The notes: generated by a model not told the origin, from the letters alone. Positions 28,604-35,223 are shown, counted from the first letter of the stretch. The stretch: DNA of 64,000 nucleotides from Candidatus Palauibacter sp. (GCF_965208055.1 NZ_CBDBNY010000004.1:2814029-2878028); one strand, 5' to 3'. Made by a program: numbers and translations.

Positions 28604-29581
28604 ATGATGAATCAGCGGCGGATTCTGTGCTGGCTACTGGTCGTGTCGGCGGGCGGCTGCGGCACGTCGCAGGAAGCTTCGTTAGGTGCCACACGGGCGG
28701 GGCCGGCGACGTCGGATCCCTACGCGCACGGGTTCACGGACGCGGACTATCCGCGCGTGATCGAAGTCGCGGACGACGTCTACGCCTACGAGCAGATCCA
28801 TGCGGCCGGGGGCGAGATCATCACGACGGTGAGCCTCATCGTCATCACGCCGGAAGGGGTGCTCGTCGCGGACGGTCAGGAGAATCCCGAGGAGACCCAG
28901 CGGCTCGTCGACACGATCGCGGGCATGACGGACCGGCCGATCACGCACGTCGTGGTCGCTTCGGATCACGGGGACCACACGGGCGGGAACTCCGCCTTCC
29001 CCTCGGAGGCTCGCTTCCTTGCGCACCCCACTTCCGCGGCGATCCTGGAGGCGAGCGCGGCGGACCCGAACCGGCCGGCGGAGGCGCCCCCGGTCATCGT
29101 CCCGACCGAGGTCGTGGGCGACGATACCGTGCTCGAACTCGGCGGGCGCGAGATCCGGCTCCTTCATCTCGGCCGCGCGCACACCGGGGGGGACCTTGTC
29201 GTGTACGTGCCCGAGGGGAAGGTGCTGTTCATGAGCGAGACGTACCTGAAGCACATCTTCCCGGCCATGCGGTCCGCGTATCCCTCGGAGTGGGTGGCGA
29301 TGCTGGACCGCGCGCTCGAGATGGACGTGGATGTCTACGTCCCCGGACACGGGGTGATGGAGTCGCCGGAGATTCTCGAGGCCGGCCTCGTGTCGTTCCG
29401 CGCTGCGGTGCAGCAGGTTGTGGAGGAGGCGACGCGATTCCACGGCGAAGGGATGAGCGCCGAAGAGGCCGCCGAGGCGGCGATGTTCGGCGCCATCGAG
29501 GAATGGTCGCTGCGAGACAGCCAGAAGCCGCGCGCGATTCAGCGCGTCTACATGGAGCTGAACGGAGAGTTGCCGGGATGA
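28604..29581 (+). CDS. MBL-fold metallo-hydrolase lipoprotein
   Basis: Lipobox-like AGGC, SDHGDHTGGN, AHTGGD, VPGHG. Confidence 0.85.
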   Translation: MMNQRRILCWLLVVSAGGCGTSQEASLGATRAGPATSDPYAHGFTDADYPRVIEVADDVYAYEQIHAAGGEIITTVSLIVITPEGVLVADGQENPEETQRLVDTIAGMTDRPITHVVVASDHGDHTGGNSAFPSEARFLAHPTSAAILEASAADPNRPAEAPPVIVPTEVVGDDTVLELGGREIRLLHLGRAHTGGDLVVYVPEGKVLFMSETYLKHIFPAMRSAYPSEWVAMLDRALEMDVDVYVPGHGVMESPEILEAGLVSFRAAVQQVVEEATRFHGEGMSAEEAAEAAMFGAIEEWSLRDSQKPRAIQRVYMELNGELPG

Positions 29582-31689
29582 GCGAGATCAGCGCGCGGAT
29601 GAGGCGAAGGCTCGGGCTCCTCGCCGTCGCGGTGGGCTTCGCGCTGGGCGTGGGCGGAGTCCGGGGGCAGTCGCACGTAACCGTGGATATCGGGGCCCGG
29701 GATCCCGCGTTCTCGCCGGACGGGTCGACGATCGCGGTCTCCATCCTGGGGAAGATCTGGACGCTTCCCGCCGAGGGCGGCACGGCGCGCCAGCTCACGG
29801 ACGGGGCCACGTGGGACACGCGGCCCGCCTGGTCGCCGGACGGCCGCTTCCTCGCCTACGCCGCGAGATCCCGCCAGGGGGCGGACATTCTCGTCCGCAA
29901 CATGGCCACGGGGGGCGTCCGCTTCCTGCATGGCGTCCCGGGGTCGGTCGGGCACATGCAGTTCCACCCGGACGGAAGCCAACTCTTCTTCGTGGACGAC
30001 CGCTCGCAGTACGAGGCGCACGTGTGGCGGATCCCGCTGGCGGGGGGCGAGGCGGAGCAGATCACGCACACGCAGAGCTGGCACGAGTGGTCGTTCGCCC
30101 TCTCGCCGGACGGGAACCGGATCCTCCTCGAGACGGGGCGCTTCGACGGCACGGACCTGTACGAACTCGACCTGGAGGAGATGTCGCTCGAGCGGGTCAC
30201 GGACACGCTGGAGCGGGAGATGGCCGTAGCGTGGGCCCCGGACGGGACGCGGCGGGCGCACGTCATGACGCACAACGGCGCCGATCAGCTCGTCGTGTCG
30301 GTGCCGGGATGGCGGAAGCTTTTCCTGAGCGCCTTCGACCAGAAGCAGCTCGCGTTCCATCCCTCCGGCGAGTGGCTGCTCGTCCTCGGGGGGCGGCGGA
30401 TGCAGCGGCTGGACCTGGAGAGCGGAGAGTTCACTCCGATTCCCTTCGAGGCTCGCTTCTCGATCGCCGAGGATCCCGCGGACGATCTGCTGATCACGAA
30501 CGTCCGCCTGTTCGACGGCACGGGCGACGAGGCGGTCCCTGCGGCGGCGGTCCTCGTCCGGGACGGGAGGATCGCGGACGTGCGGATGGGGGAGGATGGC
30601 GGGATGCCCGACATCGGGCCGGACACGCCGGTCATCGACGGGGGCGGTCGCATGCTGCTCCCGGGGCTGATGGACAACCACTACCACTACTGGCAGCCCC
30701 TCGCCGGGGCGGATCTGCTCGCGGCCGGGGTCACGGCGATCCGCGATCCGGGCTCGGCGATCCAGGACGCGATGGACTTCAAGGATGCCGTGCGGATGGG
30801 CGTGCTGGCCGGCCCCGACGTGTACACCGCCGGCCCGCTGATCGACGGCCCCGCCGGCTACCACCCCCTGGTGGACGTGAGCATCGACGACCCCGCCGCC
30901 GCCCCGGCGCTGGTGCGCGCGCTCAAGGAACAGGGCGTCGATCTGCTCAAGGCGTACTTCCTCCTCGACCCGGATGTGCTTGCGGCCGTCGTGGCCGAGG
31001 CGCGCGTGCAGGGACTGCCGGTTACGGGGCACATCGGGGTTCGCACGAGTTGGCGGCAGGCGATCGAGGCCGGGATCAGCGGTTTCAACCACATTCGGGT
31101 GTGGCGCGACTTCCTGCCCCCCGAGATCCAGGCCGACGGTCGCGACATGTCGCTCGACGGCGGACGGAACCCGGTCGGGCGCATGCAGGCCGACTGGCGG
31201 GAGATCGATCCGGAGAGCGCCGAGGTCATGTCGCTCCTCGAACTCATGGCCGAGACGGAGACCGCACTCGACCCCACGCTGTTCATCCAGGAGATCGACG
31301 ACGGCGACCGCACGCGCTTCTCGCTGGAGGAGTTCCACAACGGACGGCAGGCCTACGAGCGCATGGGCGAGTTTGTCCGGCGCGCGGTGGAGGTCGGAGT
31401 CCCGCTGCTCGCGGGCACGGACAACGTCGGGCTGTTCAACGAACTCGAGGCGTACGCGAAGGCCGGTGTGCCGAACGCCGACATCCTGCGGGCCGCGACC
31501 GCGAACGGCGCGCGCTGGCTCGGGAAGGAGGACGACTTCGGGACGGTGCAGCCGGGGCGCCGGGCGCACCTGATCCTCGTGGACGGCGACCCGCTGGAAG
31601 ACATTGCCGACCTGCGCAACATCGATCTCGTGGTGAAGGACGGCGTGATCGTCTTCGGCGGTCCCCCGGCGGAGCCGCTGGTCCCGTGA
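29578..31689 (+). CDS. PD40/TolB-like propeller + amidohydrolase
   Basis: PAFSPDG/PAWSPDG repeats; PGLMDNHYH, VTGH, AGTD. Confidence 0.87.
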   Translation: MSEISARMRRRLGLLAVAVGFALGVGGVRGQSHVTVDIGARDPAFSPDGSTIAVSILGKIWTLPAEGGTARQLTDGATWDTRPAWSPDGRFLAYAARSRQGADILVRNMATGGVRFLHGVPGSVGHMQFHPDGSQLFFVDDRSQYEAHVWRIPLAGGEAEQITHTQSWHEWSFALSPDGNRILLETGRFDGTDLYELDLEEMSLERVTDTLEREMAVAWAPDGTRRAHVMTHNGADQLVVSVPGWRKLFLSAFDQKQLAFHPSGEWLLVLGGRRMQRLDLESGEFTPIPFEARFSIAEDPADDLLITNVRLFDGTGDEAVPAAAVLVRDGRIADVRMGEDGGMPDIGPDTPVIDGGGRMLLPGLMDNHYHYWQPLAGADLLAAGVTAIRDPGSAIQDAMDFKDAVRMGVLAGPDVYTAGPLIDGPAGYHPLVDVSIDDPAAAPALVRALKEQGVDLLKAYFLLDPDVLAAVVAEARVQGLPVTGHIGVRTSWRQAIEAGISGFNHIRVWRDFLPPEIQADGRDMSLDGGRNPVGRMQADWREIDPESAEVMSLLELMAETETALDPTLFIQEIDDGDRTRFSLEEFHNGRQAYERMGEFVRRAVEVGVPLLAGTDNVGLFNELEAYAKAGVPNADILRAATANGARWLGKEDDFGTVQPGRRAHLILVDGDPLEDIADLRNIDLVVKDGVIVFGGPPAEPLVP

Positions 31690-32450
31690 TCGACCCGGCC
31701 ATAACCGGCGCCGTCGAAGCCGTCTCCCTCGCGGCCCTGCAGGTGGAGCCGGCGGGCGGGCTCCTCCCGGCGCTCTCCGACAACCCGTTCCTCGCGCTCG
31801 GCGCGCTCTTCGGGGCGGGCGTGCTCACGAGCACGAACCCGTGCATCTGGCCGATGATCCCGATCACGTTCTCCGTCATCTCGGGGACGGCGGGCGAGGA
31901 CCAGCCGCGAAAGCGCACCATCGGACTCACGCTCACGTATGCTCTCGGGCTCGCGCTCCTCTATTCACTGCTGGGTGTCATCGCCGGCCTCAGCGGTACC
32001 GTGCTCGGCTCGATCGGGGCGAGCTTCTGGGCGCTGTTCGCGACCGGCAATCTCCTTCTCTTCTTCTCGCTGTTCATGCTCGACGTGTTCCCCGTCCCGG
32101 TGCCGAAGCGACTCCTGGCCTGGGCGAGCAGCCACGGCGGCGGGTCCTACCGGGCCGTGTTCCTGCTCGGCGCGACCTCCGGCATCGTGGCCGCGCCGTG
32201 CGGCGCTCCCGCCTTCGCCGTGGTCCTGACCTGGGTCGTCGCCGAACAGGCCGGGCTCATGGGGTTCGTCTACCTGTTCACCTTCTCGATCGGCATGACC
32301 GCCGTGCTCATCGCGGTGGGTCTCTTCTCGGGAACGGTCGCGGTGTTGCCGAAGTCGGGAACGTGGATGATCTGGATGAAACGGGCCGCCGCCGCCATCA
32401 TGATCGGGATGGCGCAGTTCTACCTCATCCGGGCGGGATATTTTCTGTGA
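31686..32450 (+). CDS. ccdA: CcdA/DsbD transmembrane electron-transfer protein
   Basis: TSTNPCIWPMIP, AAPCGAP, LPKSGTWM. Confidence 0.88.
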   Translation: MIDPAITGAVEAVSLAALQVEPAGGLLPALSDNPFLALGALFGAGVLTSTNPCIWPMIPITFSVISGTAGEDQPRKRTIGLTLTYALGLALLYSLLGVIAGLSGTVLGSIGASFWALFATGNLLLFFSLFMLDVFPVPVPKRLLAWASSHGGGSYRAVFLLGATSGIVAAPCGAPAFAVVLTWVVAEQAGLMGFVYLFTFSIGMTAVLIAVGLFSGTVAVLPKSGTWMIWMKRAAAAIMIGMAQFYLIRAGYFL

Positions 32451-33001
32451 TCTTTGAATCTGCGAACTCTGAATTCAGGCGGATCGCGTTGCCGGCGATC
32501 GTTGCGTTGGTCGCGCTTGCCGGTCCCCTGAGCGGTCAGGCGGGCGCGGGGCAGGTGAGCCTCGCCACCGGCACGGCGGGACCCGACGCCGCGCTGGAGG
32601 ATCTGGACGGAAACGCCGTCCAACTCCTCGACTACGCCGCCGGCAAGCCCACGCTCATCGAGTTCTGGGCCGCGTGGTGCGAGCAGTGCGAGGGCCTCCA
32701 ACCCGAGATCGACGAAGTGGTGGCCGACTACGGGGAGCAGGTGAACGTCGTCGCCGTGGCCGTGGCCGTGGCCCAGTCGCTGCGGCGGGTGAGGCGACAC
32801 GCAGAGGCGCACGGGGCGGGATACCCCTACCTGTGGGATGCCGAGGGCGAGGCGGTGCGCGCCTACTCCGCGACCACGACCTCGATCGTCGTGATCCTCG
32901 ATGCGGAAGGGAAGGTCGCCTACACCGGCGTCGGCCCCGACCAGGACCTCGTCGGGGCCGTCACCGGAATCCTCTCCGCTCGGCAAGCGGGAGAGGATTA
33001 G
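32447..33001 (+). CDS. TlpA-like thiol-disulfide oxidoreductase
   Basis: Signal peptide, FWAAWCEQC. Confidence 0.88.
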   Translation: MIFESANSEFRRIALPAIVALVALAGPLSGQAGAGQVSLATGTAGPDAALEDLDGNAVQLLDYAAGKPTLIEFWAAWCEQCEGLQPEIDEVVADYGEQVNVVAVAVAVAQSLRRVRRHAEAHGAGYPYLWDAEGEAVRAYSATTTSIVVILDAEGKVAYTGVGPDQDLVGAVTGILSARQAGED

Positions 33002-33004
33002 TTC

Positions 33005-33601
33005 CTACGGGTCCACAGGCTCGGGCGTCACCTCGTCGATGATGGCGGCGAGTTCGTTGTAGGCGGCCGGGTCGACCTGGTTGAAGCTCGGAATGACGCC
33101 CGCCACACGGCCATCGGGCCCCACCACGATCACGGCGCGGCTGTCCACCGCGTTGCTTTCCCTCAGGCCTCCGCCGAAGGCGACGTACGTCCCCCCCTCA
33201 TTGTCCGCGTCGCTCCCGAACAGGAAGGGGAAGTCCTCGTCCTTCAGCCATGACGCGAGTTCGTCGACCGGGTCGTTCGAGATGCCCACGAGAACCACGT
33301 TCCGGCCCTCGTTGAATACGCTTGCGTACTGATCACGGTACGCTCTCATCTGAACCGTTCAGCCACGCGTCCTGACTCTGAAGAAGAAGGCGAGGACGAC
33401 GGTCTCGCCCCGGTAGTCGCTGAGCCGGATCGGGTTCTCCAGCGCCCCGTACCGGGTCGCCCCCGGCAGCGCGAAGTCCGGCGCCATCTCGCCCACGGCG
33501 AGCAGTTGCGAGTCCTGCGCGCTCACCGGGGCCGCGCCTCCGATGGCGAGCGTTCCGGCCAGGCCCAGCGCGAGGGCTGCGGCCAGGACAAGTCTCCGCA
33601 T
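33005..33601 (-). CDS. Exported AhpC/TSA peroxiredoxin-like selenoprotein (Sec at UGA 33361-33359)
   Basis: Two in-frame ORFs joined by one TGA at the TxxC position: GEMAPDFALP...VVLAFFFRVRTRG-U-TVQM...VGISND...SRAVIVVGPDG. Confidence 0.85.
33324..33343 (-). promoter_or_regulatory. Putative bacterial SECIS hairpin
   Basis: GCGUAC-CGUGAUCA-GUACGC stem-loop starting 15 nt after the in-frame UGA. Confidence 0.65.
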
Positions 33602-33747
33602 GTCTCGGTCCTTTCGTGCGGGTGGAAGAACGGTGGAAGAGCCATGCCGAAGGGTGGCGCGCCCCCCGCGTTCGCGCCAGAGTTGAGCAACGCCTCGCCG
33701 CCGGAGGCCGAACTCAGATTCCGACCCTGCCCTCAAGGAGGCGCCTC

Positions 33748-35223
33748 ATGACCCATCGATTCCGAGGCCGTCCGTGGCGTCGCGCCGCCGCCTTCGTCGT
33801 CGCCGTCGTGCTCGCGGCTCCCGCGTCCGGGTGCGCCCAGGGGAACGGCGATCCCGTGAACGATCCGCGCTTCGAGCAGGCGGTGGCGCTGTTCGAGGCG
33901 TGGCTCGACGCGAAGATGGCGTACGAGAAGATCCCCGGCGTGTCCGCGGCGCTCGTGCACGACCAGGACCTCGTCTGGGCCCGGGGCTACGGGTACGCGC
34001 ACCGGGAGACCGAGGTCCCCGCGACCCCGTCGACGATGTATTCGGTGTGCTCGATCTCGAAGCTCTTCACCTCCATCGGCGTGATGCAGCAGCGGGACGA
34101 GGGCAAGCTGGGTCTCGACGACCCCGTCTCCACGCACCTTCCGCGGTACGACCTCGCCCAAGTCTATCCCGACGGTCCGAGCGTGAGCGTGGAGGGAATC
34201 CTCACCCACTCCTCGGGACTCCCGCGCGAATCGGCGCACCCCTACTGGACGGGTCCCGACCATCCCTTCCCCACCGCGGACGAGATCATCGAAGGGCTCG
34301 CGGAGCAGGAGACGCTCTACCCCGGACGCCGCTACTTCCAGTACTCGAACCTGGGCATGGCGCTGGCGGGGCAGTTGGTCGAGCAGGCTTCGGGGATGGG
34401 GTACGACGAGTACATCCGGAGCCGGATCCTGGAGCCGCTGGGGATGTCGGACACGTACCCGGACATTCCCGTCGAGCACAGGGGCGGCCGCTACGCCACC
34501 GGGTATTCGCGGCTCGAGCGGGACGGCCAACGGGCCGAGGCCCCCTTCTTCCAGGCGCTGGGGATGGCGTCCGCGGCGGGGTTCGCCTCCACCGTCGAGG
34601 ATCTGGCGCGCCTCGCCTCGTGGCAGTTCCGGCTGCTGGAGAACGGGGGGACGGAGATTCTCGACGCGAACACGCTGAGGGAGATGCACCGCGTGCACTG
34701 GGTCGACCCCGACTTCGACACGATGTGGGGGCTCGGGTTCGCGGTCTCGCGCCGCGACGGGGAACGCGCGGTGGGCCACGGCGGGAGTTGCCCGGGCTTC
34801 CGCTCGACCTTCCAGCTCATTCCGGCGAAAAAGCTGGCGGGCGTGGTGATGATGAACGCCCTCGCCAACCCCACCGACGTGTGGACGAAGATGATGGCGA
34901 CGCTCGGCGCGGCGTTCGAGGAAATCCGGAGCGACCCGGGCGGCGGCACCGCGCGTCCGGCATCTCTGGCGGAGTACGAGGGACTGTACCAGTCCACGTG
35001 GGGAGAGACGGTCATCCTCCGATGGGACGATGGTCTCGCGGCCCTCGGCGTCCCCTCGAACGATCCGCTCGAAGCGATGACGAAGCTGCGGCACGAGGGT
35101 GGCGATACATTCCGGCGCATACGGGACGACGGCGAACCGGGAGAGGCGTACATCTTCCACCGGGAGGACGGCGCCATCGCCCGGTACAGCGTCCACGGAA
35201 ACTTCTCGAACAAGGTCCGGTAG
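33748..35223 (+). CDS. Serine hydrolase (beta-lactamase family) lipoprotein
   Basis: ASGC lipobox-like, SISK, LTHSSG, YSN, HGG. Confidence 0.9.
   Translation: MTHRFRGRPWRRAAAFVVAVVLAAPASGCAQGNGDPVNDPRFEQAVALFEAWLDAKMAYEKIPGVSAALVHDQDLVWARGYGYAHRETEVPATPSTMYSVCSISKLFTSIGVMQQRDEGKLGLDDPVSTHLPRYDLAQVYPDGPSVSVEGILTHSSGLPRESAHPYWTGPDHPFPTADEIIEGLAEQETLYPGRRYFQYSNLGMALAGQLVEQASGMGYDEYIRSRILEPLGMSDTYPDIPVEHRGGRYATGYSRLERDGQRAEAPFFQALGMASAAGFASTVEDLARLASWQFRLLENGGTEILDANTLREMHRVHWVDPDFDTMWGLGFAVSRRDGERAVGHGGSCPGFRSTFQLIPAKKLAGVVMMNALANPTDVWTKMMATLGAAFEEIRSDPGGGTARPASLAEYEGLYQSTWGETVILRWDDGLAALGVPSNDPLEAMTKLRHEGGDTFRRIRDDGEPGEAYIFHREDGAIARYSVHGNFSNKVR

Follow-up and report, generated by a model that had tools for sequence, protein, structure and literature searches.

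Peroxiredoxins that carry selenocysteine (Sec) instead of cysteine (Cys) in an AhpC/TSA domain (Prx, PF00578, TxxU motif) form an established family of selenoproteins, as stated in two papers (PMC13188914, PMC2398784). Its prototype, PrxU, comes from Eubacterium acidaminophilum, and the family is abundant in marine metagenomes, with 253 sequences in the Global Ocean Sampling data (PMC2398784). A survey of 2016 counted such proteins in 78 organisms (PMC5029168), and a review of prokaryotic selenoproteins published in 2026 assigns them, in its passages on the family, a 'highly conserved PxxxTxxU motif' (PMC13188914). Among Cys-based enzymes of similar type, the text of a study of Caulobacter crescentus describes an envelope path that runs from ScsB through TlpA to PprX, an exported peroxiredoxin of PrxQ type (PMC3322552). 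Here, a gene of this kind is reported from a stretch of 64,000 nucleotides (nt) of Candidatus Palauibacter sp. (GCF_965208055.1 NZ_CBDBNY010000004.1:2814029-2878028), and this whole stretch is referred to as the window. The gene, at 33005-33601 on the minus strand, very probably encodes an exported peroxiredoxin of BCP/PrxQ type whose peroxidatic residue is Sec and which has no resolving Cys; its function is predicted.

In the open reading frame (ORF) listing the locus is divided into 33359..33736(-) and 33005..33349(-). Translation of 33005-33601(-) with TGA read as Sec (U) gives one product of 198 residues in which a single codon, that of residue 81, is recoded within the sequence VVLAFFFRVRTRG-U-TVQMRAYRDQY (FFFRVRTRG-U-TVQM...). 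An earlier note on this DNA had described the locus as a gene split by the ORF track, interrupted by nothing except a TGA at the peroxidatic TxxC position, free of Cys and provided with a signal peptide, a catalytic Arg and a Phe in place of the Pro of PxxxTxxC. This description held throughout: the same two ORFs are found, the one TGA in the 198 codons falls on the column of the peroxidatic Cys, the 198 residues contain zero Cys, and the Arg and the Phe stand where they were placed (Arg155 and Phe74). As to the signal peptide, reading of the sequence likewise gave a signal-peptide-like N-terminus. In an alignment of homologues (A1), the N-termini are variable and hydrophobic and are followed by an invariant Gln29, and the first 17 residues of the AlphaFold2 model have a predicted local distance difference test (pLDDT) value below 50; the N-terminus is consistent with the form of a Sec-type (secretory) signal peptide and with export of the protein. 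In public protein sets, the gene is mostly stored, many times over, as a C-terminal fragment of 114 residues that is named 'peroxiredoxin family protein' and lacks the active site. Only the back half is kept in public annotation because the catalytic Sec codon reads as a stop.

The assignment to the peroxiredoxins was based on profile searches, solved structures and a predicted model. The Pfam domain AhpC-TSA (PF00578) covers residues 36-167 and thereby spans the TGA (1.1e-19; 71 bits, cut-off 26), and Redoxin is matched at 6.8e-13. All three of the following NCBIfam models score below their cut-offs: the BCP-type thiol peroxidase PRK09437 (51.5 bits, cut-off 140), the PrxU equivalog NF040737 (38.8 bits, cut-off 270) and PrxQ NF053650 (33.1 bits, cut-off 260). 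The closest sequences in the PDB are the BCP-type peroxiredoxins 2ywn (5e-11) and 2cx3, in whose alignments the peroxidatic Cys is matched by Sec81 and the conserved Arg by Arg155. An AlphaFold2 model, generated from an alignment of 15 sequences, shows the thioredoxin/peroxiredoxin topology with a mean pLDDT of 82.3 and a predicted template modelling score of 0.77. When this model was compared with the PDB using Foldseek, BCP proteins and the 1-Cys enzyme AhpE came first, with target-normalised template modelling (TM) scores of 0.80-0.86, and the probability was 1.00 for many peroxiredoxins. The set of Thr, Cys or Sec, and Arg by which a peroxiredoxin active site is recognized is complete in Thr78, Sec81 and Arg155. 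By PDB sequence and structure, the nearest subfamily is BCP/PrxQ, but the protein forms a separate, divergent branch. Its signal-peptide-like N-terminus and its lack of any Cys are consistent with a periplasmic 1-Sec enzyme.

The recoded codon is conserved far beyond the genus. Among 61 related genomes, 54 contain a match at E<=1e-10, and all 54 rows of at least 47% identity have exactly one TGA; the eight rows of lower identity (31-37%), none of which has a TGA, represent BCP paralogues of the ordinary kind. All 40 loci retrieved have TGA as the stop in the corresponding column, TGA was found in 120 of 121 related loci with TGC in the remaining one, and the 115 distinct Sec genes have it without exception. 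When each GTDB species was represented by one genome, at least 505 relatives were identified. Nearly all of the best 80 among them are titled Gemmatimonadota, Gemmatimonadales or Longimicrobiales, and the closest of these 80 are metagenome-assembled genomes (MAGs) of Candidatus Palauibacter at 91-96% identity. Of 401 genomes sampled evenly across the phylum, 331 were matched at E<=1e-25, and TGA is present in 149 of 150 among the matches listed. A query with a Cys form returned, among the matches listed, TGA in 145 of 150 and no TGA in five. Genomes flagged as unpublished enter these two tallies and no other result, G235 both of them and G212 and G116 that of the 401 genomes. The Sec gene is almost phylum-wide in Gemmatimonadota. 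A TGA-form gene of 75% identity also occurs on three MAG contigs titled 'Gammaproteobacteria bacterium' (L076, L077 and L079), at loci without tlpA-like and ccdA neighbours; L077, which was kept after the merging of identical proteins, clusters with the Gemmatimonadetes MAGs L082 and L086 with a support of 99. This occurrence may reflect mis-binning or transfer.

Where the TGA is absent, Cys takes its place. All five genome loci without TGA have TGC, and of 14 full-length homologues from databases, 13 have C and one has W at the Sec column. Two of these database entries require comment. P0002, with C at the Sec column and Phe at -7, is a doubtful Cys form: the tree described below does not separate it from L090, which carries the TGA, and its C is probably a stored U. 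P0077 combines W at the Sec column with Tyr at -7; its sister in the tree, L140, has the TGA, and the W of P0077 is probably the TGA=W reading of a gene caller, a second way in which the family is mis-recorded.

The second line of evidence for Sec insertion is a hairpin of SECIS type (Sec insertion sequence) just downstream of the UGA, which consists of six base pairs (bp) and a loop of eight nt whose second position is G. A loop G and the distance between UGA and hairpin are part of the rules for bacterial SECIS (bSECIS) elements. Of 121 loci, 111 share an identical 20-mer; ten have variants, nine of which differ in loop letters only, and the tenth is the Cys form L141. Among 92 distinct sequences of 60 nt, all six pairs of the stem are invariant (each in 91-92), and 84 have the loop CGUGAUCA. 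The codons of A87-Y92 were counted in the 115 distinct Sec genes, whose protein identity goes down to about 50%: GCG 114/114, TAC 115/115, CGT 113/115, GAT 111/115, CAG 111/111 and TAC 115/115. The synonymous entropy at codons 87-92 is accordingly 0-0.22 bits. For comparison, the other conserved columns with four- or six-fold codon sets in these genes have 0.7-2.0 bits (Phe/Asp being lower); where the conserved residue is Ala, Arg, Gly, Leu, Thr or Val the value is about 1.0-2.0 bits, and where it is Asp, 0.70-0.81 bits. Outside the hairpin, the same codons are used at Arg50 in 19 of 115 genes (CGT) and at Asp42 in 21 of 111 (GAT). In the Cys forms, AYRDQY (or SYRDRY) is spelled with GCC/TCC, CGC, GAC and TAT, and the hairpin is lost in four of five, the fifth (L175) retaining a remnant of 5 bp. 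The combination of a stop with this hairpin occurs once in the genome, at the 33005-33601 gene. Judged from these comparisons, the hairpin is under selection at the RNA level, and a SECIS that stays invariant in its nucleotides over about 50% protein divergence makes a clean case of an RNA signal within a conserved peptide, AYRDQY. The scan of 32900-33750 with Rfam models gave nothing but a chance match to a microRNA (19.7 bits, gathering score 69).

All components needed for Sec insertion are encoded in the genome. In the assembly (4.09 Mb in 4 contigs, 94% complete), tRNA-Sec was detected with 79.7 bits, over the Rfam cut-off, and also called by ARAGORN as tRNA-SeC(tca), and selA (496 bits), selB (375 bits) and selD (373 bits) all exceed their curated cut-offs. 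The selD gene, which lies outside the window (G000:C4:526480-527406, locus L018), itself encodes a selenoprotein with an in-frame TGA at GAG-U-ACK; from 12 nt past this TGA it has a GC-rich hairpin of 9 bp that is unrelated in sequence to the peroxiredoxin hairpin. The presence of selA follows the form of the peroxiredoxin: it was found in all five Sec-form genomes tested, which represent five families, and in one of five Cys-form genomes (91-100% complete). This exception, G087 (locus L175, G087:C111), is the only Cys-form genome with selA, and its Cys gene is the one that keeps the hairpin remnant; L175 looks like a recent conversion from Sec to Cys. The hidden Sec peroxiredoxin proposed in the earlier note, including its stem-loop of 6 bp located 15 nt past the TGA, has thus been borne out by a hairpin that is frozen across 115 Sec genes, by the presence of tRNA-Sec, selA, selB and selD and by a column that holds either TGA or Cys in the homologues, the last two being the checks which that note had proposed.

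RNA libraries were also considered. Three metatranscriptome libraries (X15, X16 and X20), each from a different study, contain contigs that match the gene at >=90% identity. Record 15 of X20 bridges the TGA (33245-33414, two differences), and X15 and X16 each contain 58-nt records at 33323-33380 that bridge it with 0-1 differences; the TGA is unchanged in the bridging contigs. Among the differences listed, none falls within 33321-33421, and the flanks differ at many places. The interval 33323-33380, which comprises the TGA and the SECIS, is represented by separate contigs of high depth that are identical to the window, and the flanking contigs diverge. Such 58-nt contigs of high depth are as expected if many strains share exactly 33323-33380. 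The contigs that bridge the TGA, which give no level of expression, lend weak support to the gene.

The Sec and Cys forms differ at a second position of the active site. In 138 distinct Sec forms, the position of the Pro of PxxxTxxC is occupied by Phe in 122, by Tyr in 16 and by Pro in none. Pro is present in 17 of 18 forms that show C, the lone Phe being that of the doubtful P0002. A quick maximum-likelihood tree was calculated using IQ-TREE from 162 rows and 195 columns, including the Pro/aromatic column, with BCP paralogues as outgroup; in this tree the Cys forms are scattered among the Sec forms. If P0002 and P0077 are excluded, every Cys row has Pro, every Sec row has Phe or Tyr, and the same tree requires four changes between Sec and Cys and four between Pro and aromatic residue. 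The independent pairs on starred branches all change in the same direction (3/3, p = 0.25), too few for significance.

The coordinates of the gene, its functional elements and its two closest neighbours are compiled in Table 1. A scan of 32800-33800 for sigma-70-like promoters gave none, and it gave one terminator-like site within the coding region, at 33032-33052(+), where chance would give 0.4; no meaning is attached to this site.

Table 1. Features of the Sec peroxiredoxin locus, with positions counted from the first letter of the window
Feature	Position	Strand	Basis
Sec peroxiredoxin gene, complete	33005..33601	-	198 codons including UGA-Sec81; TGA=U translation, Pfam, AlphaFold2, Foldseek
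Start ATG	33599-33601	-	sequence
Stop TAG	33005-33007	-	sequence
UGA = Sec81, peroxidatic residue	33359..33361	-	TGA in 115/115 distinct Sec genes; aligned with BCP peroxidatic Cys
SECIS-type hairpin GCGUAC-CGUGAUCA-GUACGC	33324..33343	-	6-bp stem, 8-nt loop, starts 15 nt past UGA
Thr78 of TxxU	33368..33370	-	invariant in A1; T in 97% of 115 Sec genes
Arg155, active-site Arg (SRAVIVV)	33137..33139	-	invariant in A1; aligned to Arg of 2ywn, 2cx3
Phe74 at Pro place of PxxxTxxC (-7)	33380..33382	-	sequence and alignment
Signal-peptide-like N-terminus	33518..33601	-	residues 1-28, MRR-hydrophobic-VSA/Q; read from sequence and alignment
Shine-Dalgarno-like AAAGGA	33609..33614	-	7 nt 5' of ATG; read directly in sequence
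CcdA-type (DsbD transmembrane domain) thiol-disulfide electron transporter	~31698..32450	+	Pfam DsbD_TM 1.1e-37
TlpA/ResA-like exported thioredoxin-fold protein, WCEQC	32447..33001	+	Pfam Redoxin/AhpC-TSA/Thioredoxin

The tlpA-like and peroxiredoxin genes converge, with their stop codons 3 nt apart. For the CcdA-type protein, the NCBIfam matches of DsbD type are below their cut-offs, and the top NCBIfam match of the TlpA-like protein, ResA, reaches 65 bits and is likewise under its cut-off; W83, C84 and C87 of the latter are invariant in 31 homologues. This arrangement was counted in those distinct Sec-form loci whose downstream flank is 1400 nt or longer (nine more have too little flank). Among the 129 loci of this set, 108 have both the tlpA-like gene and ccdA, six the tlpA-like gene alone and 15 neither, so that the tlpA-like gene adjoins the Sec gene in 114; the distance from the peroxiredoxin stop to the end of the tlpA-like match has a median of 74.5 nt. 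Within about 3 kb of the Cys-form loci, the pair was found in none of the five. The conserved neighbourhood suggests a periplasmic electron path from CcdA through the TlpA-like protein to the peroxiredoxin, and it is the sole basis on which a donor chain is proposed. The GTG start of the tlpA-like gene overlaps the TGA stop of ccdA (GTGA, 32447-32450), which suggests translational coupling of the two. Further out, the window contains a serine hydrolase of the beta-lactamase family whose N-terminus resembles a signal peptide or that of a lipoprotein (33745-35220, plus strand), which is divergent from the peroxiredoxin gene and keeps its position within the genus only, and, upstream of ccdA, a protein with a PD40 beta-propeller and an amidohydrolase domain (29500-31686, plus strand).

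Taken together, the following mechanism can be proposed. SelB-GTP-Sec-tRNA(Sec) would bind the hairpin downstream of the UGA and Sec would be put in at this codon, which would yield a precursor of 198 residues; this step follows established bacterial Sec decoding. The precursor would then be exported by means of its N-terminal signal peptide and, as its sequence indicates, cut near Ala28/Gln29. With Thr78, Sec81 and Arg155 as the active-site triad, the selenolate would be predicted to reduce H2O2 or organic hydroperoxides and thereby be converted to a selenenic acid. Recycling by an external thiol would be required, because the protein contains no second Cys or Sec. The most likely reductant is the TlpA/ResA-like protein with its WCxxC motif, a candidate for which the neighbourhood speaks at slightly better than even odds, and the CcdA membrane electron transporter, whose gene would be co-transcribed with that of the TlpA-like protein, may keep the latter reduced. 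In a wider proposal, the use of Sec would be structurally coupled to the loss of the Pro, in three to four independent joint switches, and would form, with the CcdA and TlpA-like neighbours, a near-universal selenium-dependent chain for periplasmic peroxide reduction in Gemmatimonadota. This proposal is tentative, and the odds are judged to lie somewhat against it.

Several observations weigh against a Sec-dependent peroxidase with this electron supply. The predicted fold of 66 nt around the UGA is no better than random (z = -0.65 against shuffles), and the importance of the hairpin derives from its conservation across genes and not from its folding energy. No compensatory covariation was detected in the stem among the 92 distinct sequences, because the stem never varies. 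A conserved lower stem was sought and not found, a seventh pair being formed in 27 of the 92, and the Rfam scan of 32900-33750 at E<=1 returned no SECIS family. For the metatranscriptome contigs, carry-over of DNA is possible. At the active site, Phe74 replaces a Pro that is usually called invariant in PxxxTxxC. With regard to the donor, the peroxiredoxin gene and the tlpA-like/ccdA pair converge and are not co-transcribed, the pair is absent from 15 of the 129 Sec loci, and ccdA/tlpA-like pairs also serve cytochrome c maturation.

In the rival that survives best, the protein is a selenoprotein of peroxiredoxin fold that acts mainly as a thiol/selenol-disulfide oxidoreductase or as a peroxide-sensing relay with the TlpA-like protein and CcdA, for instance in the repair of envelope proteins or the maturation of cytochromes. 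The universal replacement of Pro by Phe or Tyr (138/138 Sec forms), the scores far under the cut-offs of the curated peroxidase equivalogs (PRK09437 and PrxU) and neighbours of ResA/TlpA and CcdA type would all fit such a role, and text passages on Caulobacter PrxL, a peroxiredoxin-like substrate of ScsB, report no detectable peroxidase activity (PMC3322552). However, the Thr78, Sec81, Arg155 triad is conserved, the nearest sequences and structures are those of active BCP and AhpE peroxidases, and the protein contains neither a CxxC nor a UxxC motif; this rival is considered unlikely.

A second rival accepts the read-through of the UGA and attributes it to near-cognate or recoded decoding as Trp, Cys or Gly instead of Sec. 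The W of P0077 could be cited in its favour, although this residue is most simply explained by a TGA=W call and its bearer stands beside a TGA-bearing locus in the tree. Dedicated Sec machinery is present in the genome, selA is missing in four of five genomes that have switched to TGC, and Trp or Gly would be inactive at a peroxidatic site, so that decoding as anything other than Sec is very improbable. Least credible of all is a true stop, which would leave a broken gene or an exported peptide of 80 residues and a fragment of 114 residues: the fragment is indeed frequent in public protein sets and TGA is an ordinary stop elsewhere in the window, for instance at the end of ccdA, but a nonsense mutation is not expected to be fixed at one column in 115 distinct genes whose protein identity goes down to about 50%, the Pfam domain and the predicted fold need both halves, homologues have the catalytic Cys at this column, and the frozen hairpin is accompanied by the full Sec machinery.

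The Sec peroxiredoxin is above routine on account of its near-universality in a poorly studied phylum, its nucleotide-frozen SECIS, the strict pattern of Sec with Phe/Tyr and Cys with Pro, and the conserved CcdA/TlpA-like neighbourhood. The last two are put forward as hypotheses of a coupling and of a pathway. If the coupling is true, a selenolate/selenenic acid site would need, or allow, a first shell other than that of a thiolate site. Natural Sec/Cys pairs with matched Phe/Tyr and Pro provide a system for asking what selenium gives to a peroxiredoxin. If the pathway is true, electrons would pass from CcdA through the TlpA-like protein to an [F/Y]xxxTxxU peroxiredoxin in a phylum for whose selenoproteome no description was found in the literature covered. 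The antioxidant capacity and the selenium dependence of this phylum, which is widespread in soil, in the sea and in association with sponges, are under-read because the fragment annotation omits the active site.

The protein adds a new member, unrecognized in annotation, to the known class of Sec peroxiredoxins. In the open literature covered, which lay outside subscription journals and supplements, no description of it or of Gemmatimonadota selenoproteins was found: the string 'Gemmatimonad' has no occurrence in the text passages of PMC13188914 and PMC5029168, supplementary tables being outside this scope, and the paper on the Palauibacterales genomes contains none of the terms seleno-, peroxiredoxin and peroxidase. 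It resembles known Sec peroxiredoxins in its AhpC/TSA fold, in having Sec for the peroxidatic Cys within TxxU, in its Cys homologues and in a SECIS just downstream. Unlike these, it is not a PrxU equivalog, it is BCP/PrxQ-like, it has a signal-peptide-like N-terminus and it lacks a second Cys, and the Phe or Tyr at the position of the Pro departs from the PxxxTxxU motif of the review. Its best matches in the PDB by sequence and structure are the BCP/PrxQ proteins 2ywn, 2cx3, 3hjp and 5epf and AhpE (1xvw/4x0x). AhpE is likewise a 1-Cys enzyme that depends on an external reductant; however, the BCP/PrxQ and AhpE structures represent cytoplasmic, Cys-based proteins that keep the Pro, and their identity to the Sec form is only 20-31%.

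The conserved neighbours would define a testable second envelope pathway of peroxide reduction, after the ScsB/TlpA/PprX path of Caulobacter. In Caulobacter, an exported peroxiredoxin of PrxQ type is served by an exported thioredoxin of TlpA type as donor, and a membrane transporter of the DsbD family supplies the electrons. In Palauibacter, a peroxiredoxin with an export-signal-like N-terminus, a candidate donor of TlpA type and a transporter of the DsbD family are encoded by adjoining genes. Unlike the Palauibacter Sec form, PprX is Cys-based, with an intact PxxxTxxC motif and a resolving Cys. The transporter is ScsB in the one case and CcdA in the other, and the link between the components is biochemical in Caulobacter and given by gene neighbourhood alone in Palauibacter.

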